A DNA stretch of 46,994 bases from Candidatus Methanobinarius endosymbioticus (GTDB lineage: Archaea; Methanobacteriota; Methanobacteria; Methanobacteriales; Methanobacteriaceae): NCBI GenBank assembly GCA_003315655.1, contig NIZT01000029.1, positions 1 to 46,994 of the forward strand. Reading direction: 5' to 3'. Positions 1,205 through 46,467 of this stretch are shown here, in pieces (within the stretch, counting starts at the first letter, position 1; every line of letters begins with the position of its first letter). The notes beneath the pieces were generated by a model. The model searched no databases. It saw only the letters and a list, made by a program, of their open reading frames with translations, and was not told the DNA's origin. Position numbers and translations under genes: made by a program.

Positions 1205-1697
1205 ATGAGAAGAAAAAATAGAGAAGTTAATGATATTAATAAAATAATTGAAATAATTGAAAAATGTGAAATATGTACACTTTCTTTATTAAATAAGGAT
1301 TATCCCTATACTATTCCTTTAAATTTTGGTTATAATTACGATAAAGTAAAGAAAGAATTATCCTTATTTTTTCATGAAACTAAACTGGTAAAAAGATAGA
1401 TATTATCACAGGTACAATAAAAACAATGATAAAACTACATTTGAAATGCATTGTTCTACAAATTTAATTATTAATGAAACACCATGTAAATGCACTACAG
1501 AATTTAAAAGTGTAGTTGGAAATGGTAAAATAGAAATCTTAAAAAATAACGATGAAATAAATGGTTTAAAATATATAATGAAACAATATTCCGATATAAA
1601 CCGTAAAAACTCTGACTTTAATGAAAAAATACTCAAAACAACAACTGTTTTAAAATTAAAAGTAAATCAAATATCTGGAAAAGCATTTGAAAAATAA
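1205..1697 (+). pseudogene. Pyridoxamine 5'-phosphate oxidase-like (FMN-binding split-barrel) protein, disrupted by about 2 frameshifts.
   Basis: The N-terminal piece MRRKNREVND..CEICTLSL..YPYTIPLNFGY..LFFHETK (1205..1399) and the C-terminal piece ..CSTNLIINETPCKCTTEFKSVVGNGKIEIL..IMKQYS.. (1446..1697) are both PNPOx-like but sit in different frames. The intervening 1391-1450 matches KIDIITG.. / KNNDKTTFEM only after frame switches. Confidence 0.55.
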
Positions 1698-1728
1698 TTA
1701 TTTAGTAATTTTTATTTTTATATAATAT

Positions 1729-2399
1729 TTAAATTGTACTTAATTTTATTTTACTAAGTTCTATAGTACAATTTTTCCTAGTAAATTCATTGGCAGGTAT
1801 TGATAAAACATTACCATGATAATTTTCTTTTATTTTATAGACTAAAAATTTATCAGTATTTAACTCAATAAAGTTTTTAGGATTTTCTAATTCTAAATTT
1901 TCTATTTCATCATGAATATTATGATCTTCTTCTTCAATATCAATTAACCAATCAACATCTTCATTTTTCATGTTGTTGAATGTAATAGCTAAGCCAACCA
2001 TACCATTGATTTTAGCTCCTTTATAATTAAAACTATAATTCCTTATTTCATCCATTATTCTTATTGATTGATTTTTAGTTAATTTAGTAGCTGGTATCTC
2101 ATTATCAATTCTTAATAAGTTTACTTTATAGATATTTTTCCAGTTTTCTGGCCTATATATTACATAATTTTCATCATCAAAGAAAACTAGTTTGTTTTCA
2201 TCTTCATAGAATCTACGAACACATTTACACATAGTTCCACAAGTTCCTCCACATGAACATTGCGAAGATTTTTTCTATTTGATTTCACATTATACATACT
2301 TTTAGAAGGTCCAACTGAGTGAAATTTATTATTTATCATTTGATTTTTGTTTTCATTGTTATTTAGTGATTTATTATATATTATACAATCACCCTCCAT
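1729..2399 (-). pseudogene. Hypothetical protein with an N-terminal Cys-rich motif (CSCGGTCGTMCKC), split by one frameshift near 2235-2250.
   Basis: ORFs 2187..2399 and 1729..2232 are contiguous in different frames. Reverse-complement translation across the junction reads ..NRK|KSSQCSCGGTCGTMCKCVRRFYEDEN... It is a paralogue of the 3..188 fragment. Function is not recognised. Confidence 0.4.
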
Positions 2400-2636
2400 T
2401 AATTTTTAAAAATAATAATTTTAAAAAGATTTAATATAAAATTTAGATATGCCTAAATATTTATTATAAGTATATATAAAGTTATCTCAATACAACAAAA
2501 AATTAACTTAATAAATTGAATATAAAATTAAAATAATAAAAAAATAAAATAAAATATGAAAAAATAGGATAAAATAGAATAGAATAATAATAAAGTAGTA
2601 AAATTAATATTAAAGAAAAAAATAATTAACTAAAAG

Positions 2637-3275
2637 TTATTTTTTCTTTTTAAGAGCTTTTTCAATTTTTTTAATTGCTTTGTTAGCTATTTTTTTGAAA
2701 TCTTTATCTTTTTCTTTTCTTCTAGCTTTTTTAATTGAAGTTATTGCTTCTTCAACTTCCATGTCACCAAGAGCTCTTATGGATGCAAGACGTACACCCC
2801 AATCTTCTTCTTCTAACATTAATGTTTCAATTTCATCTATTTTATCAGTAGCTTGTAATTCACCAAGAGCCCTAACAGCTACTTTACGAACACCAAAATC
2901 TTCATCATTAATAGCTTCTGAAAAGTAGTCAACAGCTTTTGGACTACCTGTTGTTTTTAATGCAAAGGATGCAAATCGTTTATATTCACCTTCTTCATTA
3001 TTAACAACTTCAATTAATCTATCAACTGTTAAATCTCCCATTTTACCAAGATTTTCTGCAGCTTTATGTCTTACAGGAGTGTTTGCATCTTTCATAGCTT
3101 CGATTAAAGGTTCGATGACAGCTTCATCTTCGATTCCTTCTAAACTATTAACTGCTAATTTTCTTATTTCTACATCAGAATCAGTTAATTTAGTTATAGC
3201 TTCATCCATTGGTAATTTTTCTTGATCATTAGTCATAATTTCATCCTCAAAGATAAAAATATTATATAAAAACAA
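2637..3275 (-). CDS. HEAT-repeat protein (PBS-lyase/E-Z type HEAT repeats).
   Basis: 212 aa with repeated motif units ..VRHKAAENLGKMGD.., ..VRKVAVRALGEL.., ..GVRLASIRALGDM.. and a Lys-rich C-terminus. The true start may be the internal MTNDQEKL. Confidence 0.7.
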   Translation of the reverse strand: MFLYNIFIFEDEIMTNDQEKLPMDEAITKLTDSDVEIRKLAVNSLEGIEDEAVIEPLIEAMKDANTPVRHKAAENLGKMGDLTVDRLIEVVNNEEGEYKRFASFALKTTGSPKAVDYFSEAINDEDFGVRKVAVRALGELQATDKIDEIETLMLEEEDWGVRLASIRALGDMEVEEAITSIKKARRKEKDKDFKKIANKAIKKIEKALKKKK

Positions 3276-3631: not shown

Positions 3632-6273
3632 AATATAAAAGATAAAATTATAAATAAACAAACTGAAAGCTATTCTAAAAAAGATATTTATAAAATTCTT
3701 CACCCATGGGTTAAAGAATGGTTTGATAATACCTTTAATGATTTTACTCCAGCTCAAAAACAAGCTATAGTATATATACATAAAAGAAACAATGTACTTG
3801 TTTCATCTCCGACAGGATCTGGAAAAACATTTACTGCATTTTTATCAGTTCTTAGTGAGCTAACTACACTTGCAGAGAAAAATGAACTAGAAGATAAAGT
3901 TTATTGTATCTATATATCTCCTTTAAAGGCATAAGATAATGATATTGAAAAAAATTTATAAACCCCCTAAATGAAATAGAAAAAATAGTTATTGATAATA
4001 GAGCAACTTATCAAAAAACTGCTAAAAAAACTGAAAAGGATTAGGAATTAGAAAAGCTGTTAGAACTGGAGATACTAGTCAATAGGAACGGTCAAAGATG
4101 CTTAAAAAGCCTCCCCATATTTTAATTACCACTCCTGAAACATTATCAATATTGCTTATAACCCCTAAGTTTAGGGAAAATATCCAATGTAAAATATGTT
4201 ATAATAGATGAAATTCATTCTTTAGCTGAAAATAAAAGAGGAGTTCATTTGAGTTTATCATTAGAACATCTTCAACATTTAATTGGAGGATATACAAGAA
4301 TTGGACTTTCAGCTACAGTTTCTCCTCTAGAAAAAATAGCTAATTTCTTAGTAGGTTATGAATATGGAACACCTAGAGATTGTCTTATTGTAGATGTTAA
4401 CTATTTAAAAGAACTAGATATTGAAGTTCTAAGTCCAGTAGATGATATTGTAGTAGCTTATAGGGAAGAAACAAGATTAGATATGTATAGATTAGTTGAT
4501 GATTTGATTGTTGAACATGAAACAACACTTATTTTTACAAACACTAGAATAGGAACTGAAAGTCTTGTTTATAACCTTAAGAAAATGTTTCCTGAAAATT
4601 ATAATTCTAATAATATTATGGCTCACCACTCATCACTTTCTAAGGAACTTCGACTTGAAGCAGAAAACAAACTAAAAGAAGGAAGTTTACGAACTGTTGT
4701 TTCATTTACATCATTGGAATTAGGAATAGATATTGGTTATATTGATTTAGTTATATTGATAAACTCTCCAAAATCAGTTTCAAGAACATTACAAAGAATT
4801 GGAAGAAGTGGACATAGACTGCATGAAAAATCTAAAGGAAAAATCATCGTTACTGATAGAGACGATCTTGTTGAATGTTCAATTCTTCTTAAAATGCTAA
4901 AGAAGGTAGAATTGATAAGATAAAAATTCCACACAATGCTTTAGATGTTTTAGCTCAACATGTTTATGGAATGAGTATTGAAAATCAATGAGACATTGAT
5001 TATGTTTATGATGTAATTAAAAAAAGTTATTGCTATAAAGACATAAGTCGTGGTGATTATGAAGACGTACTTAGCTATCTTGCTGGGGAATGGTGAATTA
5101 AAAGAAAGGTATGTATATGCTAAAATTTGGATTGATTATGATAAAAACCAGTTTGGAAAAAGAGGCAGACTAACTCGAATGTTATATTCAACAAATATTG
5201 GAACTATTCCAGACAGCACAGTAGTAGCTGTAAAATGTGATGGAGAAACAATCGGAAGAATCGAACAAATTTTCATGGAAAAACTTAAAAAAGGAGATAG
5301 TTTTGTAATAGGAGGAGGCATATATATATTTAACTATGGTAGAGGTATGACTATAAATGTTTCATCAGCTAGTGGACCTCTAATCATCCCTTCTTGGTTT
5401 TCACAACAACTTCCATTAGCATTTGATTTAGCTTTAGATATTCGGAGATTTAAAGCATTACTGGATCAAAAATTTGAGTATAAATGATCTAAAGATGAAA
5501 TTTTAGAGTTTATAAATGAATATCTTTATGTAGATGAATTTGCTGCTAAACTCTATATATGAATTTTTTAAAGAGCAATTCTTATATGCACAAATTCCAA
5601 GTAACAAAAAGTTGTTAATTGAATATTATACAGGATTTGGTGGAAGAAAATTTCTTATATTTCATTCTCTATTTGGAAGACAAGTGAATGATGCATTATC
5701 AAGAGCTATAGCTTATCTTATAGCAAAAAAAATAACATTGATGTTACAATAACTATTTCAGATAATAGATTTTATCTTAGCTCAGATAAAAGAATGAGTG
5801 GACTTGAATCGTTTAAAAGATTAAGTTCAGAAAATCTTAAATTCGTCCTTATAAATGCAATAAATAAAACAGAAACATTAGCTAGTCGTTTTAGGCATTG
5901 TGCAGGTAGATCATTAATGACATTACGTCGTTATAAAAGTCAAGATAAATCTGTTGGAAGACAACAAGCTAAAGGAAAAATTCTACTTAAATTTGTTGAA
6001 GATATGGACGATAACTTTTCCATTCTCAAAGAAGCTAGAAGAGAAGTTATTGAAGATTTCATGGATATCAAAAATGCAAAAAGAGTTCTCCAATGGATAG
6101 AAAGTTGACAATTAGAAATAAAAACAATTGATACTGTAATTCCTTCACCATTTGCATTTAATTTAGTATCAAAAAGCTATTTAGACGTTTTTGCACAAAC
6201 AAATAAAGCTGAATTTTCAAAAAGAATGCATAAAGCAGTTCTAAAAAAAAATCAAAGACCAATTAAAAGATGA
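3632..6273 (+). pseudogene. lhr: Lhr-type large ATP-dependent helicase (DEAD/DEAH box), heavily degraded with at least 3 frameshifts and at least 6 in-frame stops.
   Basis: Recognisable segments run in order across three frames: [47 protein letters not shown] (Walker A); ISPLKA-TAA-DNDIEKNL; [34 protein letters not shown]; [18 protein letters not shown] (DEIH box); [10 protein letters not shown] (motif VI); [31 protein letters not shown]; LAGEW-TGA; Lhr C-domain ..[24 protein letters not shown]..; ..[15 protein letters not shown]..; [27 protein letters not shown]. No ATG lies in frame at the 5' end. Confidence 0.85.
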
Positions 6274-6505
6274 ATATTACTAAAATTATTAAAATTATTA
6301 TATTTTTAAAAAATATCAATAAAGCAATATAATTAAGTTATATAAAATATATAATATTAATATAATAAGTTAAATATCATTTATATAACTGTATTATGAC
6401 TAAAAAAACATCAATATAATCAAAAAATATTAAAAGTGTTGCATAATTGATATTGAATCAAACGTAAAATATAAATAGAATATTAAATATAAAAAAGAGG
6501 AAAAA

Positions 6506-6871
6506 ATGTTTTTAATCCCATTAAACTTTTGGATATTATTTTTTGCTGTATGTTTATTTTTAGAAATAGTTACAACTGGATTTTACCTAATGTCAGTGGG
6601 AATTGGATCAGTTGCAGCAGCAATAGCCAACTACTTAGGTTTTGATCCAACAATCCAATTAATCATTTTTGTTATAATTACCATTATTTGTATAATAGCA
6701 TCTAGACCATTAGCAAATAGATTAACAAGAGAATCACCAGATAAAAAAGTTGCAACTGATAGACTTGTTGGAAAAGAAGGAGTAGTATTTGAAGCTATTG
6801 ATCCAGAAAATTCAGGAATGCTAAAAATATCTGGAGAATTTTGGAGAGATAGTTATTGTGGAAAACGTTAA
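6506..6871 (+). CDS. NfeD-like membrane protein (short form; partner of stomatin). Likely a C-terminal frameshift.
   Basis: N-terminal TM helices plus C-terminal ..[11 protein letters not shown]. Immediately afterwards the +1 frame reads [19 protein letters not shown] (to 6902), which is the expected end of the NfeD OB-fold. The gene sits directly upstream of a stomatin gene, the classic nfeD-stomatin pair. Confidence 0.6.
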
Positions 6872-7095
6872 AGGAATAAGACTAATAGTTAGGAAAAAAT
6901 AAACAATTTTTAACTAAGAATTTAATATTTTCTTTAAAATAGTATTTAATATTTAAATTCAACATTTAAAATAAAAAATAAAATAAAAATAATAATAAAA
7001 ACAATAATATTAAGAATAATATTAATAACACAAATACTAATGTTAATAAAAATAAAAAAAATAAAATAAAAAATAGATATAATGGAGTCTAAAAA

Positions 7096-8099
7096 ATGGA
7101 TATATTCATATTAACTATCATGTTAATAATCATTGTAATTGTTTTAGCATATAAAGCTATAAAAATACTTAGACCTTATGAAAAAACAGTAGTAGAAAGA
7201 TTCGGTAAATATCAAAGAACTGTTGAAAGTGGTTTAATATTCATAATTCCTTTTATTGAATCTATTAGAAAAGTAGATCTTCGTGAACAAGTAGTAGATG
7301 TGCCTCCACAAGAAGTAATTACTAAAGATAATACTATAGTAGTGGTTGATTGTGTTATCTTTTATGAAGTAACGGATCCTTTTAATGCTGTTTACAATGT
7401 TGTAAATTTTTATCAAGCTATAACCAAGTTAGCCCAAACAAATCTTAGAAATATTATAGGTGATTTAGAGCTTGATCAAACTCTCACTTCCAGAGAAATG
7501 ATTAGTAGTCATCTTCGCAAAGTGCTTGATGAAGCTACTGATAAATGGAGAACAAGAGTTGTTAGAGTAGAAATCCAGAGAATCGAACCACCTAAAGATA
7601 TTGTAGATGCAATGAGTAAGCAAATGAAAGCTGAAAGAATGACGCGTGCTGCAATACTTGAAGCAGAAGGATATAAAGAATCTGAAATAAAAAGAGCTGA
7701 AGGTGACAAACAAGCAGCTATATTAGAATCAGAAGGTCGAGCAAAAGCTATCAAAAAAGTAGCAGATGCTCAAAAATACGAAGAAATATCTATAGCTGAA
7801 GGTCAGGCAAAAGCTACAATAGATGTTTATGAAGCTATTCATGCAGGGATCCTACCAATGATTTATTAGCTATAAAATATTTAGAAGCTCTTGAAAAAAT
7901 AGCTGATGGAAATTCTACCAAAATTTTCCTCCCAACTGAAGTATCTGGAATTCTTGGTTCAATCGGAGGAATAGCAGAATTATTTGATGATGACAACAAT
8001 CTAAATAAAAAGGAAACACACGAAAATAAAACTAAAACTTCTAAAATAAATGAAGTAATGGGTAAAATAAGTGAAAAAACAAGAAAACTCAATGAATAA
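7096..8099 (+). CDS. Stomatin/prohibitin (SPFH, band-7) family protein with a frameshift near 7850.
   Basis: N-terminal TM helix, then the SPFH core (..[24 protein letters not shown].. and a coiled-coil EA/KA-rich region). ORF-track frame ends ..HAGILPMIY* at 7869. The conserved C-terminus [32 protein letters not shown].. continues in the +1 frame to TAA at 8097-8099. Confidence 0.8.
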
Positions 8100-8237: not shown

Positions 8238-8492
8238 ATGGGAGAATTAACTAGTTTACCTAATATTGGAAAAGTTATAGAAGAACAATTAAATGAAATT
8301 GGAATATTTACCATAGACGATCTAATCGAAACCGGAGCCAAAGAAGCTTGATTAGCTATTCTAGAGATAGATGATTCTGCCTGTTATAATAGACTTTGTG
8401 GATTAAAAGGAGCTATCCAAGGCATAAGATGGCATGATTTGTCAGAAAAAGACAAAGAAAATTTAAAAGAATTTTATAAATTAAATAAATAA
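8238..8492 (+). pseudogene. Small TfoX C-terminal-domain-like / helix-hairpin-helix protein with a single in-frame TGA at 8349-8351.
   Basis: MGELTSLPNIGKVIEEQLNEIGIFTIDDLIETGAKEA-TGA-LAILEIDDSACYNRLCGLKGAIQGIRWHDLSEKDKENLKEFYKLNK*. The TGA sits where this family has a conserved aromatic/Trp (..KEAWL..). A purine-rich RBS (agagag) lies upstream of the ATG. Confidence 0.45.
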
Positions 8493-8910
8493 CTTTTAAC
8501 AATATTTCTAGATTATACAAATTACAATTTTTTACTAATTTTATATAAATTAATAAAATTCTTATTAAAGTTTTATTCTATTAAATTAACTATTCTATAA
8601 ATTTTTATTTTATTATTTTATATTTATATCATTTTCATTAAAATATAATAATAACAATAACAAGTTTTAAATTTAAATTTAAATAATAATATTATTAAAA
8701 ATATAATTATACTTTTTTTATAAAATCTATTTTTATTAAAAAGTTTCAACTTATTCTTAAAAAGTGAATAAAAATTAAAAATAATATAAAAAAATATAAA
8801 AAATATAGAAATTTATATAAAATTATACAATTTAATAAAAATATGTGAATTGTATAATTTTATATTATAATTTTGCATTAAAAAAGAATTATAATAGATA
8901 AATTTAAAAT

Positions 8911-8939
8911 AAAACTCAAAAGGCTTAGATATGAGTTTT
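8911..8939 (+). promoter_or_regulatory. Perfect 8-bp inverted repeat (AAAACTCA-N13-TGAGTTTT) immediately upstream of the ddh RBS. Candidate operator or 5'-leader hairpin.
   Basis: Read directly from the sequence. The GGAGGG RBS is at 8946-8951 and the TTG start at 8959. Confidence 0.3.
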
Positions 8940-8958
8940 AATATAGGAGGGAAAATAC

Positions 8959-9933
8959 TTGACTGAAAAAACTAAAATTGGAATTGTTGGATATGGAAAT
9001 TTAGGAAAAGGTGTTGAATTAGGTATTGAACAAAATGACGATATGGAATTAATAGCTATATTCACTAGAAGAGATCCAAAATCATTAGATCATCCATTAA
9101 TGGAAAATATGGAAAATATGGAAAGTTATAAAGATAAAATTGATGTAATGATTTTATGCGGAGGTTCAGCTACTGATCTTCCAGAACAAACACCTGAAAT
9201 ATCTAAGATATTTAATACTGTAGATAGTTTTGATACTCATGCAAATATTCCAGATCATTTTGCTAATGTTGATAAAGTAGGAAAAGAAAATGGAACATTA
9301 AGCTTAATATCAACCGGATGGGATCCTGGTTTATTTTCTATGTATAGAATAATGGGAGAAAGTATGCTTCCTGTAGGAAATACCTATACCTTTTGGGGAA
9401 AAGGTGTGAGTCAAGGGCACTCTGACGCAATCAGAAGAATTGATGGTGTTTTAAATGCTAAACAATATACCATTCCTATTGAAAAATCTTTAGATAGAGT
9501 AAGATCTGGAGAAAATCCTGAATTTACTACTAAAGAAAAACATCTTAGAGTATGCTATGTAGTACTTGAAAGTGGAGCAGATAAAGCTAAAATTGAAGAA
9601 AAAATAAAAACTATGCCTAATTACTTTGATGAATATGATACTGAAGTAAATTTCGTCAGTGAAGAAGAATTAGATAAAAATCATAGTGGTATGTCTCATG
9701 GAGGATATGTTATAAGAACTGGTGTCTCCCAAAACGAAACAAAACAACGAATGGAATTTGTTTTGGATCTTGGAAGTAATCCTGAATTCACATCTAGTGT
9801 ACTTATAACTTATGCAAGAGCTGTCCAAAAAATTCATGAAGACGGGAAAAACGGATGTATAACTGTTTTTGACGTTCCTTTAGGTATGCTTTCACCAAAA
9901 CCTAGTGAAGAATTAATAAAAAAACTCTTATAG
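8959..9933 (+). CDS. ddh: meso-Diaminopimelate D-dehydrogenase (Ddh).
   Basis: 324 aa, alignable along its full length to bacterial Ddh: IGIVGYGNLGKGVE; STGWDPGLFS; FWGKGVSQGHSDAIRRIDGV; KHLRVCYVV; MPNYFDEYDTEVNFV; HGGYVIRTG; NPEFTSS. TTG start with a GGAGGG Shine-Dalgarno 7 nt upstream. TAG stop. Confidence 0.85.
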   Translation: MTEKTKIGIVGYGNLGKGVELGIEQNDDMELIAIFTRRDPKSLDHPLMENMENMESYKDKIDVMILCGGSATDLPEQTPEISKIFNTVDSFDTHANIPDHFANVDKVGKENGTLSLISTGWDPGLFSMYRIMGESMLPVGNTYTFWGKGVSQGHSDAIRRIDGVLNAKQYTIPIEKSLDRVRSGENPEFTTKEKHLRVCYVVLESGADKAKIEEKIKTMPNYFDEYDTEVNFVSEEELDKNHSGMSHGGYVIRTGVSQNETKQRMEFVLDLGSNPEFTSSVLITYARAVQKIHEDGKNGCITVFDVPLGMLSPKPSEELIKKLL

Positions 9934-10022
9934 AACTTTTTTTAATATTTTATTTTTATATAAATTATTTTTAATAATTAGTAATTGTAATATTTTTTTA
10001 TATTTAATTTTATACATATTTG

Positions 10023-10051
10023 ATATTGTTATTTCTTATAAATAACAATAT
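10023..10051. promoter_or_regulatory. Perfect 12-bp inverted repeat with a 5-nt loop (ATATTGTTATTT-cttat-AAATAACAATAT) in the convergent intergenic region between ddh and the adhesin-A pseudogene. Candidate bidirectional terminator hairpin or protein-binding palindrome.
   Basis: Read directly from the sequence. The stem is AT-only. Confidence 0.25.
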
Positions 10052-10371
10052 AATTATAAATATTTTTATTATCTTTTGATTTTAAAAAAGTTTAGAGTTT
10101 ATTTTTTCTTTGGACAATTTTTATAAAATATAATCTTTTATAAAAAATAACTTAATAACAAGTGGATTAGTCTATAATAAAATTTATGATTTTAATAATA
10201 TATAAAAAAATTAGTCTCAATGTTAAAAAAGAATGATAAAGTGATAATTATATAGTTAATTTTAAAAATTATCATTAAAATATAGTATTGTGATTAAAAA
10301 ATGTTGTATAAAAAATTAATAGAGGTATAGAAAAGTTAATTATTCCTCAAATTTATAAAATTTTGTTTTGT

Positions 10372-36405: not shown

Positions 36406-36834
36406 ATGATTATGAAAAAATCCCGATTAAGTTTGTTTAAATCAACTTCAATGCTAATATCTGTATTAGGAGTATTGATGATAGTTTCAAGCATGATAGT
36501 TGCGGCTTATATTGGTTTTAATGTGATTTCATCAGAAATTTCATCAGAAATTTCATCAGGATCTCAATATGAAATATTAAATTCACTTAAAGCTAATTAT
36601 ACAGAATTAAAAGCTAAATTTAATTCTACTAAACCAACAATATTCACTGGATCTAATAAAACAAAAGAAAAACAATATATTGATGCTGAATTAGAATTAT
36701 TAAGGGCTGATTCGGCAATCAGTGATGTTGAAAGTGTTTTGAATTCTGGAAAACCATCTAGTGATGTGGATGCTAGAATCAAAACAGCTAAAGAAAAATT
36801 AAGTATAGCTAGTAAAGCATATAATGAGCTATAG
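36406..36834 (+). CDS. Membrane-anchored hypothetical protein with a coiled-coil-like C-terminus and a short in-frame tandem repeat.
   Basis: N-terminal TM helix (LISVLGVLMIVSSMIVAAYIGF), then (SSEI)x2.8 encoded by the 12-bp tandem repeat at 36526-36560. Confidence 0.4.
   Translation: MIMKKSRLSLFKSTSMLISVLGVLMIVSSMIVAAYIGFNVISSEISSEISSGSQYEILNSLKANYTELKAKFNSTKPTIFTGSNKTKEKQYIDAELELLRADSAISDVESVLNSGKPSSDVDARIKTAKEKLSIASKAYNEL
36526..36560 (+). repeat. 12-bp tandem repeat ATTTCATCAGAA x2.9, in frame (ISSEISSEISSG).
   Basis: Read directly from the sequence. Confidence 0.9.
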
Positions 36835-37127
36835 AATTTTATTATGAATATATCATCCACATAGTATTTGTATATATTATGAAAACTTATATAAAAAATA
36901 AAATAAATACATTACAATAATATAAGAGATTAGTTTATACTATATATTAATTTATTAAATTTACCATTTATTATTCCTTATTATTTTTAATACTCAATTA
37001 ACTAATTTACATAAATTAATTAATATAATATTGATAATATACTATTAATAAATTTAATTACTTATATTCTTATTAAATATAACCTTTAGATAACATATTT
37101 AAGATATCATTATAAGGAGGAGAGACC

Positions 37128-37535
37128 ATGGAAAAATACAAAGATTTATTGAATAGAGCTATTGATCAGCTCCCACCAGAAGTTTTTGAAACAAAAAGAT
37201 TTAGTGTTCCAAAAGCTTATTCAGTTATACAAGGAAATAGAACTTTTGTTCAAAATTTTAAAGAAATAGCTGAAGCTTTAAATAGAGATCCTCAACATTT
37301 ATTAAAATTCTTACTTAGGGAATTAGGTACTGCTGGGAATTTAGAAGGTGGAAGAGTTATTTTACAAGGTAAATTCACTCATTTTTTAATAAATGAAAGA
37401 ATAGATGAATATGTTGAAAAATTCGTTATGTGTCAAGAATGTAATAGACCAGATACAAGAATTATCAGAGAAGATAGAATATTCATCTTAAAATGTGCGG
37501 CTTGTGGTGCTAAAGCTCCACTAAAAACATTATAA
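37128..37535 (+). CDS. eif2b: Translation initiation factor 2 beta subunit (aIF-2 beta).
   Basis: 135 aa with a C-terminal zinc ribbon ..[29 protein letters not shown] lies upstream. Confidence 0.9.
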
Positions 37536-37732
37536 TCCACATATTGTAGCTATTATAGCTACTCTTTTTTTATTTATTAAATAAATTATTGAATAAATAA
37601 TCAAATTCAATAGATTTAAATACAGAATATATTTGAATAAAATTATTGAATAAAAAATTCAAGTAAATATTACTTAAAAATCAATTTTAACTATATTTTT
37701 ATATTATCTAATTAAGATAAAGAGTGTTGTAG

Positions 37733-38794
37733 ATGTTTTGTCCAGAATGTGGTAGTACAGATACTCCAATGGTTGGAGGAATTTGCCAAAACTGTTTTTT
37801 AAAGAAGTTTTCTATTTTAGAAATTCCTGAAAATATAGAACTTACTATCTGTGCCCATTGTAATGCAAAATTTGAAGAAGGAAAATGGGAAGAATTAGAA
37901 ATTCCTGAAGAAGAAATCATTTACAGAGCTTTAGAAAAAAGTATTAAAGTGGATCCCCAAGTAGATGAAGATAAACTACATGTTGAGCTCGAAATTGTTC
38001 AGATGAGAGGAATCATAGCTGAATGTCATATTGAAGCCAAAACAGAAATCTTTAATGAAACTTTAGAACAATCATTTGACACAGAAGTCAGATTGATGAA
38101 AAGTGTGTGTCCTACCTGTAGTAAACAGCGATCAAGTTATTATGAAGCAGTTATTCAATTTAGGGTCGATAATCGTGAATTAACCTCAGAAGAAGTTGAA
38201 AAAGCTGATGAAATTGTTGTTAAAGTCTTGAACAACCGATTTGAAAGAGATAGGTTAGCTTATTTAGTTCAAAAAGCTAAATTAAAAGAAGGTAATGACT
38301 ATTACATTGGATCTTATAAATCTGGAAAAAAGGTAGTAGAAGCTATACAAGAAGAATTTGGCGGAATAATCAAAGAGTCTCCTAGATTAATAAGTCAAGA
38401 TAAATCTACTGGAAAAGGTTTGTATAGAATATGGATCTCTATACGTCTTCCAAACTTTAAAAAAGGAGATTTTATAAGATACAATAATGTTGATAATGAG
38501 ATATTAGCTATCGATGGTAAACGAATTCTCATGAAAAACTTAAAAACTTTTAAAAAAGTTCCTGTTCAATGGAAAGAATATGATTCAATAGAATATTTAA
38601 AAAACTATGAAGATATTCAAACTACTACTCTAATATCAATTTCACCTTCTACAATACAGCTATTAGATCCTGATGATTATAGTGTAGTAGACATAGAAGT
38701 AAATAATAATTTTAAAAGTCTTGAAATTGGTGAAGAAGTAAATGTTATAAAAATTGAAAACAATATTTATTTACTTGAATTCAATGAAGAATAA
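37733..38794 (+). CDS. Archaeal NMD3-family protein (ribosome biogenesis/export factor homologue).
   Basis: N-terminal Cys4 zinc clusters (CPECGS..CQNCF; CAHCNAKF; CPTCSK), then the NMD3 OB-like body. 353 aa. Confidence 0.7.
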   Translation: MFCPECGSTDTPMVGGICQNCFLKKFSILEIPENIELTICAHCNAKFEEGKWEELEIPEEEIIYRALEKSIKVDPQVDEDKLHVELEIVQMRGIIAECHIEAKTEIFNETLEQSFDTEVRLMKSVCPTCSKQRSSYYEAVIQFRVDNRELTSEEVEKADEIVVKVLNNRFERDRLAYLVQKAKLKEGNDYYIGSYKSGKKVVEAIQEEFGGIIKESPRLISQDKSTGKGLYRIWISIRLPNFKKGDFIRYNNVDNEILAIDGKRILMKNLKTFKKVPVQWKEYDSIEYLKNYEDIQTTTLISISPSTIQLLDPDDYSVVDIEVNNNFKSLEIGEEVNVIKIENNIYLLEFNEE

Positions 38795-38967
38795 ACTAAT
38801 TATAATTAACAAAAATGTAATATTTATTAAAAAATAATAGATATATTTAATAATATATCCTTAATATATCCTTAAAAAATAAATAAATAAAATATTATTA
38901 AAATTATTAGTAAAAAAATACTATAAATAATAAATAATATATATTAGATAATCCTAGAAGTGATTAA

Positions 38968-39930
38968 ATGGATATTAAAGCAAAATTAGACCTAATAGAG
39001 AAAGGAACATTAGAAATGATTAATACAGAAGAGCTAGAAGAAAAACTCAAAAAAGAGAAAGCTGTTGCTTATACTGGTTATGAACCTTCTGGGAAAATTC
39101 ATTTAGGTCATACAATTACTGTTATGAAATTAAAACAAATGCAAGATTTAGGTTTTAAAATAAAAATACTTTTAGCTGATTATCATGCTTATTTAAATGG
39201 AAAAGGAACTATTGAAGAAATAGAAGAAACAGCTAAATACAATGAAAAATGTTTCAAAGCTTTAGGATTAAGTGATGATACTGATTTTGTTTTAGGTTCT
39301 ACTTTCCAAACTAAACCAGAATATACTGATGAAGTTTATAAATTAGCTACACTTACCACTATTGTAAGAGCAAAAAGAAGTATGGATCAAGTAAGTAGGC
39401 ATAGTGAACATCCAAAAGTAGCTAATGTCATATATCCGTTAATGCAAGTAGCAGATATGAGTTCTTTAGAAGTAGATGTAGCTCTTGGTGGAATGGAACA
39501 AAGGAAAATCCAAGTTTTAGCTAGAGAAAATCTTCCTAAAATTGATAAAGAAGCTCCTGTTTGTATTCACACCCCACTTTTACATGGTTTAGATGGTGAT
39601 GAAAAAATGTCCAGTAGTAAAGGTAACTTCATAGCTATAGATGATGAGGAATCAGAAATTAAAACTAAAATAAACAAAAGTTTCTGTCCAATGAAAGAAA
39701 TAGAAGGAAATCCAATTATAGAAATAGCTACTCACTTTGTTTTTCCAAATCAAGCTAAATTATTAATAGAAAGACCAGAGAAATTTGGTGGAAATTTAGA
39801 ATTATCTGAAAAAGAATTAATAGAAACTTATAGTTCTGGTGAACTTCATCCAATGGACCTAAAAAATGCTATAGCTACATTTTTGATCGATTATTTAGCT
39901 AAAGTTAGAGATTATATGACTAATAATTAA
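38968..39930 (+). CDS. tyrS: Tyrosyl-tRNA synthetase (archaeal/eukaryal-type short TyrRS).
   Basis: HIGH-type motif ..PSGKIHLGH.. and KMSKS-type motif ..KMSSSKG... 320 aa. Confidence 0.9.
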
Positions 39931-40063
39931 AAATATATTTAACTATATTATTAATACATTGAAAAAAATTAATTAGATTAAATAATTAAAATTATATTAT
40001 ATTAATTAAGAATATATTTAAATTAAAAAATTGCTAAAAAGAAAATATAATTAAATAAATCAC

Positions 40064-40294
40064 GTGATTATTATGGATTATGAAATGAAATTACCTCTTG
40101 GTGTTGGAGAACAAATATTAGCACATACCATAGAAAAATTTGAAGTTAAATTAAAACATACTGATTATGGACCAGTTCTTATTGGAACAGCTGAAGAATT
40201 AGAAAATGCAAAAGATTATATTGTAAAATCCATAAATGAAAGATTAAGCGAACTCTCAAATAAATATGATGAGAGTGAAAAAGAAGAAGAATAA
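40064..40294 (+). CDS. Small acidic hypothetical protein.
   Basis: 76-aa ORF between tyrS and tmk. No recognisable motif. Confidence 0.3.
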   Translation: MIIMDYEMKLPLGVGEQILAHTIEKFEVKLKHTDYGPVLIGTAEELENAKDYIVKSINERLSELSNKYDESEKEEE

Positions 40295-40342
40295 AAATAA
40301 ATAAAAATTAATAAAAAAGAAAAAGGAATACTAAACATTCAT

Positions 40343-40987
40343 TTAGTCTAGTTCACTAACACAAAATCCTAAAAGAGGTGCAACTACTTTTCGAATATCA
40401 GATTGAACTTTTTTAGGACCATTATTAGCATTTATTATAGTAAATTTATTTTTATTATCATTAATATTTTCATTATTATTTTTAAATTTGTTTTTATTTC
40501 CATTAAATTCTTTAGCTAACTCCAAATAATTATTCTTTACTTCAGTTAAAAAAGACTTTTTTTCAAATTCATCTTCACCAGAACAACGTTCTATAGCTAA
40601 ATCAACATCTAAATCTAAAAGAAGAACTAAATCAGGTTGTTTTGCAAATTTGTTTATTTCAGTTATCCAATCTTTAGGTTTTTGATATACTAAGCTTGAA
40701 TAAAAAGACCTATCACTTATGATTACTTTATTACAGTATTCTTCATTATCTATTTTATCCATAAGCATTAAACGATCAGCTGCAAATAAAAGTCCCAATG
40801 CTTTTTGAAAATTTTCTTTTGTAGCATTTGGATCTTGAAGCATTTTCCTAATTAAAACACCTACATCGGAATCAGTAGGTTCAAGAATAGTTTCCACTTC
40901 AATTCCAGAATCTTCTAACCATTGTTTAAGAACTGTTATTTGAGTGGATTTTCCAGCTCCATCAATTCCTTCTAAAACAATATACAT
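40343..40987 (-). CDS. tmk: Thymidylate kinase.
   Basis: P-loop MYIVLEGIDGAGKSTQ, DRS/DR motif ..ISDRSFYSS.. and a lid region. 214 aa with an Asn/Lys-rich insertion. Confidence 0.85.
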   Translation of the reverse strand: MYIVLEGIDGAGKSTQITVLKQWLEDSGIEVETILEPTDSDVGVLIRKMLQDPNATKENFQKALGLLFAADRLMLMDKIDNEEYCNKVIISDRSFYSSLVYQKPKDWITEINKFAKQPDLVLLLDLDVDLAIERCSGEDEFEKKSFLTEVKNNYLELAKEFNGNKNKFKNNNENINDNKNKFTIINANNGPKKVQSDIRKVVAPLLGFCVSELD

Positions 40988-41248
40988 ATAAGAATACCTT
41001 AGTTTTTAAATTATATAAAAATAATGTTATTTAAATAAATAATATAGTTAAAAAGTAAATAATATGATTGAATTTGTTAAATTATATTATCTAAAATAAA
41101 TTATTACTAAAACAATTTACTAATAAAATTATATTTTATTATTATAAAAATATTTATAAAAATTTATATAATAATATTATGTTTTCATATGATAAAAAAA
41201 TTAAAATAAAAAAAATAATTATAAAGTATTAAAATCTTATTAGTAAAA

Positions 41249-43159
41249 CTACTCAAATTTCTTAAGTATTTCCCCATAAACTTCTTTTAATGTACCTTCA
41301 GAGTTTTCATATATTCTTTTTAAGATAAATTCTGGAGTACTTCTAGCTAAACAATTCATTTTAGGAGTTCTATCCACGATCAAATTGTATTTTTCATCTA
41401 ATCCTTTTGCTTCTATACCATCTACTCGAACATCAGAATAATTCATTAATTCTTTAGCCATATGAGTTACGATAATAGCATAAGAATTAGAATCTTTAAT
41501 CATTTCAATAAAGCTAGATATTATCTTTACTGCAGCTTCTAACTCAGTAATTCCCTCTAATTCATCAAGTAGTATTAATTTTTCTGTATCAGTTGTAACT
41601 ATAGGCATGAAAACATTGAGGAAAGATTCAAAAGCACCTGCATCTAAAGATCTCTTTTTTGAGAAATGATAAATTTCATCCAATAATTTAACTTCTGCTT
41701 CTTTTACACAAACAGGAAGTCCCATATGAGTCATTATAGATATTTGAGCTATTGTTTCAAGAAGTGTTGTTTTACCACCACTATTAGCTCCAGTAAGAAG
41801 AGCTACATTATCAGGACGACTTAAATCATAATCAATTCTTTGAATATAATCTCCTTTTTCAAGTCTTAATTCTAAGTGCAAAGCTCCTTTAAGTTTAAAA
41901 TCATCAGCTAATTTTGCAGGCATTAAATCATATTCATAAGCAAAACTACCTAAAGTAAATTCATAATCAAACTCTAATGTTTCTTTTACCTCATCTATAG
42001 CTTGAGTCTTGATACTAGCTAAATAGTTAGCAGCTGTAATTTTTTTATCAAATAGATTATTTTCTTTTTCAATGCTCTGCATTAGTTTTATCCGTTCTAA
42101 TTCATTTTCATCAATTTCAAGAGGATATTGTCTTAAAAATGGATCAAAATCCATCCCAGTTTCTTCCTTAATTATTACCTTACCTTTACCAATGATTTCA
42201 TCAAATATTTTAGCTATTTTAGGAGGCATGTCATTGTTTAAAAGATCTAGTACTTCATTTCCCTCGAGATCAATTTCTTTAATAGCTACTTTAAGTTCTT
42301 CATCAAGATCAGATCTTACAGAATTAACCACTTTTTCTACATCAACATCTCGTTTTTTAAGAGAATTAACTTCATCCAACATAGGACCTATATCTTCAAG
42401 AATGGTTTTTTCATTGAGAATTCTTCTGATTTCAGCTACTCTATTAAAAAGATCAGAATTTTCATTAAAATAATCTAAAATTAATTCAGGAATAATTTTA
42501 TGCTCAGGAGCTTCTTTACTAATCATGATATAATTATTCATTTCACCTACTTCAAGGAATCCTTCTGTATAAACATAATATATCAATTCATAGCTACGAA
42601 TTTCTTCTTCAAGCATGGTTGAAGAGGAAGCATTTATTATAGGATAATATTGATTAAATCCCAAATCTAATAAATAATCACTGTCTTCATCAGTTTCCAC
42701 AAGTATGGCTTTACTAGGATCATAATCAGGACGAACTTTTTTAGGAAGCTGAAGCTTCTTCATCAGCCCTTTTAATTTAATGATAGGAAGCTTTGAAACT
42801 TTTTCTTTAGCATCCATTACAAAATCAATTTGTTTTTTTATAGTTGTTTTGTCTTTAGAGGGAGATAAAAGAAGTATTCTGTTTTCAGCGTAATTTGTAT
42901 TAGAATAAGATATAATCTTTTCAATAATTTCTTCATATAATTGAAATGCTCTTTCACTTTTTAAAAATTCTTGGCTAGGATTTTCAAGTAGCTGATTCAT
43001 AATTTCTACAGCTTTTCTTTGACTTATACCTTCGATAGCTATCAATCGTTTAAGGTCGAGATCTTTAACAATTTTTTCTAATTCTTCTCTTCCACCAACA
43101 GCTTTCAATATTTTTTCAGATAATTTATCCCCAACCCCATTCACTTCATTTAGATTCAT
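41249..43159 (-). CDS. MutS2-like protein (MutS domain-V ATPase with an N-terminal helix-hairpin-helix).
   Basis: N-terminal HhH ..GVGDKLSEKILKAVGG... C-terminal MutS ABC-ATPase core ..LLTGANSGGKTTLLETIAQISIMTHMGLPV.. and Walker B ..LILLDELEGITE... 636 aa, intact. Confidence 0.7.
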   Translation of the reverse strand: MNLNEVNGVGDKLSEKILKAVGGREELEKIVKDLDLKRLIAIEGISQRKAVEIMNQLLENPSQEFLKSERAFQLYEEIIEKIISYSNTNYAENRILLLSPSKDKTTIKKQIDFVMDAKEKVSKLPIIKLKGLMKKLQLPKKVRPDYDPSKAILVETDEDSDYLLDLGFNQYYPIINASSSTMLEEEIRSYELIYYVYTEGFLEVGEMNNYIMISKEAPEHKIIPELILDYFNENSDLFNRVAEIRRILNEKTILEDIGPMLDEVNSLKKRDVDVEKVVNSVRSDLDEELKVAIKEIDLEGNEVLDLLNNDMPPKIAKIFDEIIGKGKVIIKEETGMDFDPFLRQYPLEIDENELERIKLMQSIEKENNLFDKKITAANYLASIKTQAIDEVKETLEFDYEFTLGSFAYEYDLMPAKLADDFKLKGALHLELRLEKGDYIQRIDYDLSRPDNVALLTGANSGGKTTLLETIAQISIMTHMGLPVCVKEAEVKLLDEIYHFSKKRSLDAGAFESFLNVFMPIVTTDTEKLILLDELEGITELEAAVKIISSFIEMIKDSNSYAIIVTHMAKELMNYSDVRVDGIEAKGLDEKYNLIVDRTPKMNCLARSTPEFILKRIYENSEGTLKEVYGEILKKFE

Positions 43160-43632
43160 TTTTAAGCTCCTAATTAGTATTACTTAAATATTTAAAGTTT
43201 TTTGTTAATAACTGTTATTTTTTACTGTATTTATAAAATATTTTTAAAATTCATTAGAATATTTTAGAATATTAATTAATATATTTATTCAATCAATTAA
43301 TTATTCAATCCAATTATACTGAAATATTTATAAAATAAATATCATTATACTACCATAGTTTACAATATTCTAAATATCATTTAGACATATATATAATAGA
43401 ATTTAACCTACAAAAATGTGGAAAAGTAATATATTATTATATAATTGTTTAAAATAATGATTAAATTAGACCATAATATTGTACTAAAAAGATTAGCTAA
43501 AATAATTAAAATATTATAAATTATTATAAATAATATTATATTATAAATTAAATTTGAATAGAATAGATTGGTTGAATAGATATATTATTAAAATATTATA
43601 AAGTATAATTAGAAATAATTAGAGATAATACA

Positions 43633-46467
43633 TTATAAATTAAAAACATAATTTTTAGATCTCCATCGAGCATCAATAGCAAAATTATTAAGGTTTGATG
43701 AAATAAAATCAGGAATATTCTCCATTAAATTATTTTCAGTACTATTTAATAGTAAATTTCCACCTTCAACTTTTTTAATAGAATAATTATTATTTTTAAA
43801 ATCATTTAAATAAATATTGAAATCATTACTTGATTCATTAATAAACTTAATATGTTTTTTTGTAAGTATTGGATTTCGACTTATCAAAGATTCAATTTTA
43901 CCTTTAACAATAATTTCAAGTTCTGGAGAACTAAAATTTCCTATATCATTTTTGTAATGTTTCATTAATGTTTCTAGATTTTCTTTAGATAATTCTGGAG
44001 ATGTGATATTAATAGATTAAAATCGTTTAATTTTGATGGCGTTTTTGAGTTAAATACATTTAAAGGATAAGCCCCATAAACATCAACATTATAATTATTA
44101 ATCAGAAAATCCTAATGAACTAGTCATTACATCTATCTTAATTTATAATTTTTTAATATACCAATAATTTTTATTAAATTCTCTTTAATGTTTTTATGAA
44201 TTATATCTGGCCATTTCCATATCAATTTATAATTTTGATTTTTTGATAAAAGAATAGATTCTTTTAAGAAATTTAAATAATAGTTAATATCAACAGGTTT
44301 ATCTGTTGAATTAAATGTATCTTGAACAAGAACCTCTAAATATATTCTATTATATTTATTAGCAATATCTTTATTATTTCCAATGTCTTTTAATAATTCT
44401 AAATCATTTATATATAATGATAATGAATATTTTTTAGGATTATCTTCATAATTATCTTTAGAATTATTTTGATGATCAATATTCTTTTTGAAGATTTTAT
44501 ATTATCATAGCTAGGTTTATAGCTATTTACAATAGTTTTTTCTAATTTATTAAAATGATCGCCTAAATTCATTAATTTGACTTATTAGAGCAAATAAATT
44601 TCCAGGATAATTAATAGAAATATTTTCAAAATAAAAAGGAAGATTTCCAATTTTTACTAGCTGTTTTTTCAATTGTTCAAAATTAATTGGTTTATTTTTA
44701 ACTTTTTTCCAGGAATGTTCTCCTTTTTCAACTATATTAATAATCTTACCATTGTCTAAGTTTACAGTTCCCTCTAAGACTGGAATTTTTCCATCATTTT
44801 TATTAGAAGAATCTATAGAAAAATTGATAGAAATAGGAGTCTTTTTGAAGATTTATTCTGCTTCAGCATGTAAAATAGCTTTAGTAAAATCAGATATTTA
44901 TTTTCTTTTAGTTAAATAAACTTTATTTCCTTTTTTAACATCTATATGAACATTTTTATTTTCTTTTACTAAATTAATAGAAATAATAACATTATTATCA
45001 TAGTATACTTATTATCTTTATTTTTTTACTAAATTTATTATTTTTATTAATTTCAGTATTGTGATTTTTATAATTATTATAGATTTTTATGGTTTCTCTT
45101 ATTTTTATTATAATTATCATTAGGATTATTATTAGATTTATTATAATTATTAATATATTAATTATTTAATATTTCAAATCCATAACTACCATTATTAGAT
45201 TATATTAACAAAACATCTCCTTTTTCAGGAATATTTTGTATATTAGAATTTAATGAATCAATAGTTCATTATGATTATTATTAGATTTATTAAAATCAAT
45301 TATTTTACCAATGAATAAACCAAAATGACCTGGTTTCTTTCTACTCATAATAAATTCTTTAAAAACATTATAATAATTATCATTTATATTTTTTATATTC
45401 CCAAAAATATCTTTATTTTTATTATTATTAAGGTTCTTATTAGTTTTATTATTATGATTAAATAATAAAAATGTCCCGATGTAAATCCTCGATTAAAAAC
45501 TAGTTTTAAATTTTCATTTTCATTAATATTGTTTTTAGCTATATTTTTATATTTTTTATTTTTAGATTTTTTTGGATTTTTATTTTTATATTGATTTTTT
45601 ACATTATTTGAAATAAAATTAAGATTAGAATCTTTGAATTTATTTAATTTCTTCCTATATTGATTAACAACATTAGTTACATACTCTGTATTTCTCATTC
45701 GACCTTTTATTTTTAAACTAGCTACACCTAATTCAATCAATTGAGAAATATTGTTGTATAATGAAAGATCTTTTGTAGAAATAAGATAATCTTCATTTTT
45801 ATGATTAGGAATTACTAATTTTTTTCCTTTTTTTTCCATCTTTCTCTTCTAAAAGTATTTGATATTTTTGACGACAAGCTTGAGCACAAATTCCTCTATT
45901 ACCACTTCGACCTCCGATTAAAGAAGAAAATAAACATCTTCCAGAGTAAGAAAAACATATTGCCCCATGGACAAATATTTCTGTTTCAATATTTAATAAA
46001 TAGCATGATCAGTCATTTCTTTAATTTCATCATATTTTAATTCCCTAGAAAGAACAATTCTAGAAATACCATTATCTTTAGTCCAGTTGATTCCTTCAAT
46101 ATTTTGAATATTCATTTGAGTAAAAGCATGAATTGGAATATTGGGAATCATATTTTTCAATGATAAAAGCCCAATATCTTGAATTAAAATAGCATCTACA
46201 CCAATTTTATATAATTCAAAAATATATTCTATAACTTCTAATAACTCATAATCTTTTATTAATATGTTAACTGTGATATAAACTTTAACATTATATAAAT
46301 GTGCAAATTCAACAGCTTTCTTTTATTTCAGAAAGTTTAAAATTTAGAGCATGTTTTCTTGCACCAAATTTTTTCCCAGATAAATAAATAGAACTTGTTC
46401 CTGAAAAAACAGCTAATTTTAAATGTTCCATAGAACCACCTGGAGCTAATAATTCTGGTAGTTTCAT
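43633..46467 (-). pseudogene. Peptidase U32 family (collagenase-like) with a long C-terminal extension, fragmented by many frameshifts and stops.
   Basis: N-terminus MKLPELLAPGGSMEHLKLAVFSGTSSIYLSGKKFGARKHALNF.. then TGA. Next frame ..KAVEFAHLYNVKVYITVN... U32 signature IETEIFVHGAICFSYSGRCLFSSLIGGRSGNRGICAQACRQKY. Then ..HKNEDYLISTKDL..LKIKGRMRN..LVFNRGFTSGHF.. and ..FIMSRKKPGHFGLFIG.., each in different frames. The 3' limit (43633) is uncertain. Confidence 0.65.

Follow-up and report, generated by a model that had tools for sequence, protein, structure and literature searches.

Stops and frameshifts interrupt many reading frames along a single archaeal contig on which housekeeping genes stand undamaged, which raises the question of whether these are genuine pseudogenes and, if so, what has allowed them to decay. 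The window analysed here is that entire contig (46,994 bp) of Candidatus Methanobinarius endosymbioticus, also known as Methanobrevibacter sp. NOE, and its MCM, PurP and aIF2-beta proteins are exact matches to GenBank entries RBQ23078, RBQ23073 and RBQ23080. The NOE assembly (GCA_003315655) consists of 70 contigs, and the methanogen, a putatively obligate endosymbiont, inhabits the cytoplasm of Nyctotherus ovalis, a ciliate of the cockroach gut (PMC11287868). The identity of the organism thus bears out the original prediction of a host-restricted or endosymbiotic methanogen, the lifestyle itself being taken from the literature. The genera named in that prediction, Methanobrevibacter or Methanosphaera, fit only in so far as Methanobrevibacter is understood in its old, broad sense.

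Disrupted and intact genes along the contig

Lesions were called from frameshift-aware protein-to-DNA alignments against intact homologues, together with stop-to-stop fragment structure. At least 68 were found in 14 genes spanning 20.2 kb, in agreement with the approximately 20 kb, and the at least 12 broken genes plus NfeD and stomatin, that had been proposed. Alignment to intact homologues supports 12 of the 14, the other two (adhesin-like genes A2 and A4) being called from fragment structure only. Lesion density was approximately 3.4 per kb and homogeneous over the broken genes (chi-square p = 0.78), with per-gene counts reaching 13 rather than the three to eight first suggested. Intact coding sequence makes up 34% of the window, pseudogenes 44% and intergenic DNA 22%, and no insertion-sequence expansion is visible within it.

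At least 19 of the lesions are nonsense substitutions located outside homopolymers. The indels are 1–2 nt long, approximately half of them within A/T runs, and the resulting +1, −1 and −2 shifts are mixed with stops. TAA, TAG and TGA all occur in frame and replace codons for L, Y, W, R, G, E and K in no consistent pattern. For eight nonsense codons (five in lhr and one each in the TfoX_C-domain gene, orf240 and mem138), the nearest relative has a codon that can be compared, and each is a single substitution away from it, e.g., TGG to TGA, TAT to TAG or AGA to TGA.

The PNPOx-like (Pyridox_ox_2) pseudogene (1127–1694, plus strand) changes frame near 1382–1408, with its Pfam match spanning the two-frame junction; it shares 50% identity with a partial orthologue at locus L081, and the orthologue is intact at relative loci L081–L083. 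The Cys-rich orf240 pseudogene (1732–2471, minus strand), whose C-terminal 167 aa correspond to GenBank protein RBQ23039, has a stop at 2423 (TTA to TAA) and a frameshift at 2267. The Lhr-type DEAD-box helicase pseudogene, lhr (3647–6280, plus strand), contains five in-frame stops (3932, 4083, 4989, 5485 and 6106) and eight frameshifts (near 3959, 4033, 4176, 4891, 5091, 5548, 5732 and 6244). Its frame-corrected product, with the Pfam domains DEAD, Helicase_C, WH_Lhr and DEAD_assoc, has 86% amino acid identity to an intact 880-aa orthologue at L081. The damage is lighter in NfeD (6506–6906, plus strand), where a C-terminal frameshift near 6857 leaves an ORF of 121 aa versus 145 aa in relatives, and in stomatin (Band_7/SPFH; 7096–8096, plus strand), where a single frameshift at 7849 places the last ∼80 aa in another frame while the SPFH domain is intact, so the protein may still be functional. 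One nonsense mutation, of a Trp codon (TGG to TGA) at 8349, interrupts the TfoX_C-domain gene (8238–8489, plus strand).

Further along, a hydrolase-like pseudogene with a GSSAGG motif (14163–15162, plus strand) has frameshifts near 14440, 14703, 14760 and 14828, all four of which were recovered identically against each of six homologues. The homologues match no Pfam family, leaving the earlier label of alpha/beta hydrolase unverified and the gene in an uncharacterised family. The fragment at 13754–14080 does not belong to this gene. The gene previously labelled LCP (23193–23907, plus strand; frameshifts near 23400 and 23555, stops at 23671 and 23857) is an LCP-like cell-envelope gene, but its family is DUF4012, its match to LytR_cpsA_psr being weak (E = 0.009). 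Homologues of 239 aa, at most 69% identical by BLASTP, are conserved across Methanobrevibacter, and the frame-corrected alignment gives 75% identity. On the minus strand, a CPBP (Rce1-like) intramembrane protease pseudogene identified by Pfam (25997–26734) has at least four lesions and no usable start codon, its 247-aa orthologue being intact in the closest relative (L084), and a U32 peptidase pseudogene (43550–46467) has at least 12 frameshifts or stops. NCBIfam profiles gave no match for the small pseudogenes.

Four adhesin-like genes, all on the minus strand, carry five to seven lesions each. A1 (10375–12832) encodes a signal peptide, Chlam_PMP/beta-helix and Ig-like repeats and a C-terminal transmembrane anchor, and has at least six lesions (stops at 12667 and 11780; frameshifts near 12376, 12290, 11930 and 10964). 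A2 (15954–18578) also has at least six, namely a stop within the signal peptide (18543–18545) and five frame changes, and A3 (20506–22642) has at least seven, including stops at 22081 and 21799 and at least five frameshifts. A4 (27021–28988), with a signal peptide, beta-helix and transmembrane anchor, is broken into six overlapping reading-frame segments, equivalent to five frameshifts. No close orthologue was found for A2 or A4, which were therefore called pseudogenes from their internal fragment structure.

The remaining genes are undamaged. A block at 29671–43159 is colinear with the closest relative and in a single frame throughout; it holds purP, an MJ0936-type phosphoesterase, rlmE, DUF2283, 2TM, MCM, orf142, aIF2-beta, NMD3, tyrS, orf76, tmk and a MutS-like ATPase. 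A CN-hydrolase gene (201–1070, plus strand) is likewise intact, as are several accessory genes: a HEAT-repeat gene (2637–3275, minus), ddh (8959–9933, plus), an aldo/keto reductase (19236–20378, plus), an MBL-fold gene (24110–24913, minus) and a Tag glycosylase (25233–25820, plus). The same orthologue alignment, applied to 13 control genes, revealed no internal lesion. Over all 20 intact ORFs (15.9 kb) there were no lesions, as had been claimed for the essential genes, an outcome with a Poisson probability of ∼5e-24 at the pseudogene rate. Of the 22 genes in synteny with relatives, none of the eight for information processing or nucleotide metabolism was disrupted or lost, versus 10 of the 14 others (Fisher p = 0.0017), a comparison that is independent of how ‘intact’ is defined. 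Approximate dN/dS values against L081 were 0.035–0.17 for intact genes, including MCM, purP, aIF2-beta, rlmE and NMD3. The housekeeping genes have escaped damage and evolve under purifying selection.

Relatives and the origin of the lesions

The closest relative of NOE is a Methanobrevibacter known from bioreactor metagenomes, whose MCM protein is 94% identical. Seven genes that are broken in NOE remain whole in this relative (TfoX_C, Band_7, NfeD, lhr, orf240, PNPOx and CPBP). Wherever a broken gene has a syntenic orthologue there, that orthologue is intact, and the lesions are therefore specific to the NOE lineage. Comparison with relatives' orthologues, which had been put forward along with the original prediction, gave the same picture more broadly: genes with multiple disabling lesions in NOE are intact at L081–L084 and in other Methanobrevibacter. 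Outright gene loss has occurred too. A flavodoxin gene adjoins lhr in 12 loci (L001, L016, L081–L083 and seven ruminant-associated Methanobrevibacter loci), whereas in NOE it is absent and a 225-bp gap at 6281–6505 is the scar of its deletion. The formate/nitrite transporter gene that lies between the MJ0936-type gene and purP in the closest relative was rejected as a second deletion, as only that relative has it there and the change cannot be polarised.

It is very probable that host restriction has relaxed selection in NOE and thereby led to the pseudogenisation of its surface and accessory genes, and the relaxed selection and ongoing genome reduction first envisaged are well supported by the orthologues kept intact outside a host. 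Life restricted to a host would relax selection on genes needed elsewhere, which here may include the surface adhesins, the LCP-like cell-envelope gene, the CPBP protease, the Lhr repair helicase, the U32 peptidase, the NfeD/stomatin pair and the PNPOx-like and TfoX_C-domain proteins, and population bottlenecks would probably weaken selection further. Ordinary mutation, in the form of nonsense substitutions and 1–2-nt indels, would then build up neutrally and some genes, such as that for flavodoxin, would be deleted outright, while purifying selection would keep replication, translation and nucleotide-metabolism genes intact.

The erosion might instead be that of an ordinary gut methanogen, begun before intracellular life and unrelated to it. 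Across related methanogens, the highest pseudogene loads are found in arthropod-associated clades, at up to ∼14% of gene content (PMC13135261), and therefore erosion is not exclusive to the intracellular state. Nor does gene spacing set NOE apart. The long intergenic tracts invoked in the original prediction do exist (165–921 bp, with no RNA genes in the long ones by Rfam and tRNA scans), but genes of the syntenic block lie at similar distances in the closest relative, and genome-wide coding density (Prodigal) is 68.3% in NOE versus 66–68.5% in gut-wall relatives (PMC11287868). Low coding density thus appears to be shared across the clade and not to be specific to the endosymbiont. An origin of the broken genes before intracellular life is nonetheless very unlikely given their intact orthologues in the closest relative and the youth of the lesions (∼0.03 substitutions per site, compared with a dS of ∼1). 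Pseudogene counts run the same way. NOE has 187 curated pseudogenes, 95 by PGAP and 209 by Pseudofinder, while the gut-wall relatives have 9–15 and 83–117 by PGAP and Pseudofinder, respectively, i.e., two to eight times fewer by the same pipelines (PMC11287868).

Could the lesions be artefacts of homopolymer miscalls, amplification chimeras or a mixed-strain consensus? Several frameshifts do fall in A6–A9 runs (e.g., 5732 and 6244 in lhr, 23400 and 23555 in the DUF4012 gene), the adhesin-like genes contain repeats that make assembly difficult, and the lesions are known from the assembled consensus. The NOE assembly reportedly goes back to picked ciliate cells whose DNA was amplified. Such errors are, however, highly improbable as the general cause, in line with the original prediction. 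The lesions include the nonsense substitutions outside homopolymers. Runs of ≥6 bases are equally dense in intact and broken genes (4.2 per kb in both), yet the intact ORFs contain 67 homopolymers of at least six bases, 17 of them at least seven, without a frameshift. Error at the pseudogene rate would hardly have spared 15.9 kb of intact sequence, and the single-copy, non-repetitive lhr, U32, DUF4012 and CPBP genes are damaged no less than those with repeats. The depositors, moreover, seem to have regarded lhr as a pseudogene, judging from the numbering of locus tags 11590–11640, which give only two proteins.

Continued expression of the interrupted genes, through stop reassignment or read-through, programmed frameshifting or homopolymer phase variation, can be dismissed with near certainty: surface adhesins are phase-variable in many microbes and a few of the frameshifts lie in poly-A tracts, but three stop types replace seven amino acids without a consistent pattern, no intact ORF has an in-frame stop, tRNA and Rfam scans of the window yielded no recoding elements, the adhesin-like genes have their several lesions, nonsense changes among them, in place of one reversible repeat-tract shift per gene, and the 4–13 independent lesions in unrelated contexts within the lhr, U32, DUF4012, CPBP, hydrolase-like and adhesin-like genes exceed anything through which a known recoding system or on/off switch acts.

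Timing of the decay

From these comparisons we infer that the decay is caused by relaxed selection after the move into a host, and that this release came recently and for the different genes at roughly one time. The dN/dS analysis, also suggested at the outset, gave a value of 0.08 for lhr against the nearest relative, within the range of the intact genes, although dS to that relative is ∼1 and near saturation, which makes both dN/dS and timing rough. At this value lhr was constrained for most of the divergence, and its inactivation therefore looks recent. Under neutral decay, its five stops imply roughly 84 substitutions, or the ∼0.03 per site given above. Relative to distant Methanobrevibacter, lhr shows slight acceleration (73.7% versus 76.3% identity) and U32, which is poorly conserved everywhere, shows none. 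The uniform lesion density and the limited decay of lhr might tentatively be read as a single, roughly synchronous release from selection on entering the ciliate, though we regard this as doubtful. If true, an archaeal endosymbiosis could be dated by using lesion density as a molecular clock.

Erosion in NOE and other host-restricted lineages

Genome erosion in NOE is already known. It was published in 2018 and confirmed by comparative studies of 2024–2026, and later papers, which also attribute the finding to Lind et al. (2018; ISME J 12:2655), describe many pseudogenes and an early stage of erosion (PMC12662959, PMC11287868, PMC13135261). The present analysis validates that result, maps the lesions gene by gene and cautions that many fragments in the public record are annotated as ordinary proteins. 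In GenBank, the pieces of the adhesin-like and hydrolase-like genes, and stomatin and NfeD in their truncated forms, are entered as separate ‘hypothetical protein’ coding sequences, and such gene fragments may skew the numbers of pseudogenes and of ‘gained secreted proteins’ published for NOE.

Recently host-restricted bacteria such as Sodalis glossinidius and Mycobacterium leprae are likewise pseudogene-rich, with multi-lesion pseudogenes beside housekeeping genes that are intact; the earliest losses are of surface and environmental-response genes, when the genome has as yet shrunk little. NOE differs from these in being one of few archaeal cases, and in the absence of visible insertion-sequence expansion from the window. 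A closer parallel is Candidatus Methanobrevibacter (Methanovirga) cononymphae, a methanogen of the same family that also lives in a protist, has raised pseudogene numbers (148 curated) and has lost accessory genes with its core functions intact (Kaneko et al., 2024, PMC11287868). Unlike NOE, it belongs to a different genus-level lineage, is a facultative endosymbiont of termite-gut flagellates and has fewer pseudogenes, which are concentrated in defence, repair and the mobilome and include fdhA (PMC11287868).

The methanogen endosymbionts of anaerobic ciliates, whose genomes display the early steps of endosymbiotic decay outside the bacteria, are to our knowledge the sole known intracellular archaea. 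This contig is a dense example, with pseudogene remnants occupying close to half of its length. The first genes to go are surface adhesins, an LCP-like envelope gene, a membrane protease and a repair helicase, while replication and translation remain pristine.

Disrupted accessory and surface genes

Candidatus Methanobinarius endosymbioticus (taxid 2006182), formerly Methanobrevibacter sp. NOE (assembly GCA_003315655), lives as the endosymbiont of Nyctotherus ovalis, a ciliate of the cockroach gut (PMC10684969). The window is very AT-rich (GC 20-32% in 2-kb windows), and tRNA and Rfam scans of its whole length found no RNA genes. Lesions were called with a purpose-written frameshift-aware protein-to-DNA aligner, for which 85 related loci and protein searches supplied intact reference homologues. 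These alignments, together with fragment structure, bore out the original prediction that accessory and surface genes are disrupted.

The lhr gene (3647-6280; Pfam DEAD, Helicase_C, WH_Lhr and DEAD_assoc) carries five in-frame stops and eight frameshifts, and, with frames corrected, shares 86% identity with its 880-aa orthologue, which is intact in the closest relative. At least 12 lesions were found in the U32 peptidase remnant (43550-46467; Peptidase_U32), at least four in the CPBP protease (25997-26734) relative to the 247-aa orthologue that the closest relative's genome carries intact, and two frameshifts and two stops in the DUF4012/LCP-like gene (23193-23907) relative to 239-aa homologues conserved across Methanobrevibacter. 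The PNPOx-like gene, orf240 (1732-2471, minus strand; the predicted Cys-rich gene), NfeD, stomatin and TfoX_C have one or two lesions apiece. Pfam also confirmed the assignments to Pyridox_ox_2, Band_7, NfeD, TfoX_C, Rce1-like and DUF4012. The SPFH domain of the stomatin is intact and conserved (dN 0.076), and judging from its sequence the truncated protein may still work. The gene at 14163-15162 shows four frameshifts that are identical against six different homologues. Its predicted disruption thus stands, but the label of alpha/beta hydrolase is still a guess from a GSSAGG motif, since the homologues match no Pfam family.

The four adhesin-like genes, A1-A4 (10375-12832, 15954-18578, 20506-22642 and 27021-28988, all minus strand), contain Chlam_PMP, Beta_helix, Big_1, Big_3_5 and CarboxypepD_reg domains. 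Each begins with a signal peptide and ends in a C-terminal membrane anchor, its sequence spread over 6-7 reading-frame segments. For A1 and A3, the successive frames line up colinearly with full-length homologues; the pseudogene status of A2 and A4 is based on fragment structure.

In GenBank, the tested adhesin-like fragments (A1, RBQ23047, 10953-11678; A2, RBQ23057, 16919-17671; A3, RBQ23064, 22079-22615; A4, RBQ23067, 27018-27602), the truncated stomatin (RBQ23043, 7096-7869), the truncated NfeD (RBQ23042, 6506-6871) and the orf240 C-terminus (RBQ23039, 1729-2232) are deposited as separate "hypothetical protein" CDS. None of three tested lhr and U32 fragments was found in the protein collection. 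Locus-tag and accession numbering suggests that the record also carries the hydrolase-like fragments as CDS and that its depositors marked lhr as a pseudogene. UniRef carries pseudogene fragments on as Ig-like or beta-helix domain proteins, and fragments may inflate NOE gene tallies as well as those for secreted or adhesin-like proteins. At the extreme 5' end of the contig, a fragment at 3-167 (plus strand) has 36% identity to the orf240 C-terminus, which suggests an orf240-family paralogue severed by the contig end.

Intact genes, sequencing error and recoding

The same aligner found no internal lesions in 13 control genes, including purP, rlmE, MCM, aIF2-beta, NMD3, tyrS, tmk and the MutS-like ATPase; the names originally given to the intact genes agreed with Pfam. 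MCM, PurP and aIF2-beta are deposited as RBQ23078.1, RBQ23073.1 and RBQ23080.1, and the MCM helicase shares 94% identity with its counterpart in an uncultured Methanobrevibacter MAG and 91% with the M. cuticularis protein. Overall, pseudogenes totalling 20.2 kb contain at least 68 lesions and intact ORFs totalling 15.9 kb contain none, the probability of the latter at the pseudogene rate being ∼5e-24. Because it is circular to call genes "intact" when they lack lesions, genes were also classified by function. Of the 22 genes in synteny with relatives, eight belong to information processing or nucleotide metabolism, and none of these was disrupted or lost, versus 10 of the 14 others (Fisher p = 0.0017). 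The small membrane protein at 15310-15669 was scored as intact in the counts; it has 119 aa versus 138 in the closest relative, an AAA to TAA change at 15667 ending it 19 codons early, and this may be one more early lesion.

Random sequencing error, which the sparing of housekeeping genes had been predicted to exclude, fits these data poorly. Homopolymers of at least 6 occur at 4.2 per kb in both intact and broken sets (at least 7, about 1 per kb), so miscalling there would hit intact genes too. Moreover, at least 19 lesions are nonsense substitutions, and all eight nonsense codons comparable with the relative are a single base change away (e.g., TGG to TGA, TAT to TAG, AGA to TGA, GGA to TGA). 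Recoding is ruled out, as TAA, TAG and TGA all occur in frame in place of many different amino acids.

Gene order in the closest relative

The closest relative (loci L081-L083) comes from uncultured Methanobrevibacter genomes, some of whose proteins are also on record from a bioreactor metagenome. As in the window, its gene order is tyrS, NMD3, aIF2-beta, MCM, rlmE, phosphoesterase, purP, membrane protein, TfoX_C (84 aa), Band_7 (333 aa), NfeD (145 aa), flavodoxin, lhr (880 aa), HEAT-repeat protein, orf240 and PNPOx, except that the window lacks the flavodoxin. All of these counterparts are intact, as expected if the lesions arose in NOE's lineage. The original prediction had proposed this comparison with orthologues as a check.

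The flavodoxin gene lies directly downstream of lhr in 12 loci across the family, including the closest relative, the related locus L016 and seven ruminant-associated Methanobrevibacter loci. In the window it is missing entirely beside lhr, where only 225 bp are left (6281-6505), which indicates a clean deletion rather than a pseudogene; outright deletion thus goes along with pseudogenisation. A 279-aa Form_Nir_trans formate/nitrite transporter (L081, 8497-9336) sits between the MJ0936-type phosphoesterase and purP in the closest relative, with no trace in the window at 30763-31286. It occupies that position in no other locus, so the change could be either a loss in NOE or a gain in the relative. 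The difference may be relevant because, in Ca. M. cononymphae, loss of fdhC has reportedly been tied to endosymbiosis.

Compared with the closest relative, the window has two additional segments, at about 8.5-15.3 kb (8490-15300) and 15.7-29.6 kb (15700-29650), which break up the conserved gene order purP - membrane protein - TfoX_C. Within them lie all four adhesin-like genes along with ddh, an aldo/keto reductase, an MBL-fold gene, Tag, and the DUF4012 and CPBP genes, and they look like a variable accessory island. Between rlmE and MCM (32546-33706) lie a DUF2283 gene (69 aa) and a 2TM-domain membrane gene (155 aa), whose open frame continues for 70 codons 5' of its first ATG; this interval is only about 220 bp in the closest relative. 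An 18-codon Asn/Lys-rich low-complexity insertion in tmk (40343-40987), as compared with the closest relative, shows that AT-biased low-complexity expansion reaches even an intact housekeeping gene, and the U32 remnant has about 166 additional codons that are similarly N/K-rich.

Timing and extent of erosion

Pairwise dS to the closest relative is about 1, making dN/dS and timing estimates rough. The dN/dS, another proposed check, is 0.035-0.17 in intact genes and 0.08 in the broken lhr, which was constrained through nearly all of the divergence. About 6% of random lhr substitutions create stops, so its five stops correspond to some 84 substitutions (about 0.03 per site) since it was inactivated; the ratio of indels to substitutions is near 1:10. 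Lesion density does not differ detectably across the 14 disrupted genes (chi-square 8.9, 13 df, p = 0.78; small counts, with lower bounds for adhesin-like genes without orthologues), which is compatible with roughly simultaneous release from selection.

The high non-coding fraction had been read as fitting erosion. Long AT-rich spacers are indeed present, but they appear to be a clade trait rather than specific to the endosymbiont, since whole-genome coding density is 68.3% in NOE versus 66-68.5% in gut-wall relatives (PMC11287868, Table 1) and intergenic spacing in the syntenic block is similar in the closest relative. Mean predicted CDS length, computed from the table in PMC11287868, is about 600 bp in NOE versus about 880-925 bp in relatives, which fits widespread gene fragmentation.

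NOE, a likely obligate endosymbiont, has 187 manually curated pseudogenes, 95 by PGAP and 209 by Pseudofinder, versus 9-15 and 83-117 in relatives by these two pipelines (PMC11287868), and PMC12662959 credits Lind et al. (2018) with "a large number of pseudogenes". The pattern seen here is thus a published result, correctly found again; what value remains lies in a map of lesions for each gene, the deletion of the flavodoxin gene, the uniform density of lesions and the warning about fragment CDS in the public annotation. The lesions, the intact orthologues and the endosymbiont source support, as the best explanation, the relaxed selection originally proposed, with early-stage genome erosion in an endosymbiotic methanogen.
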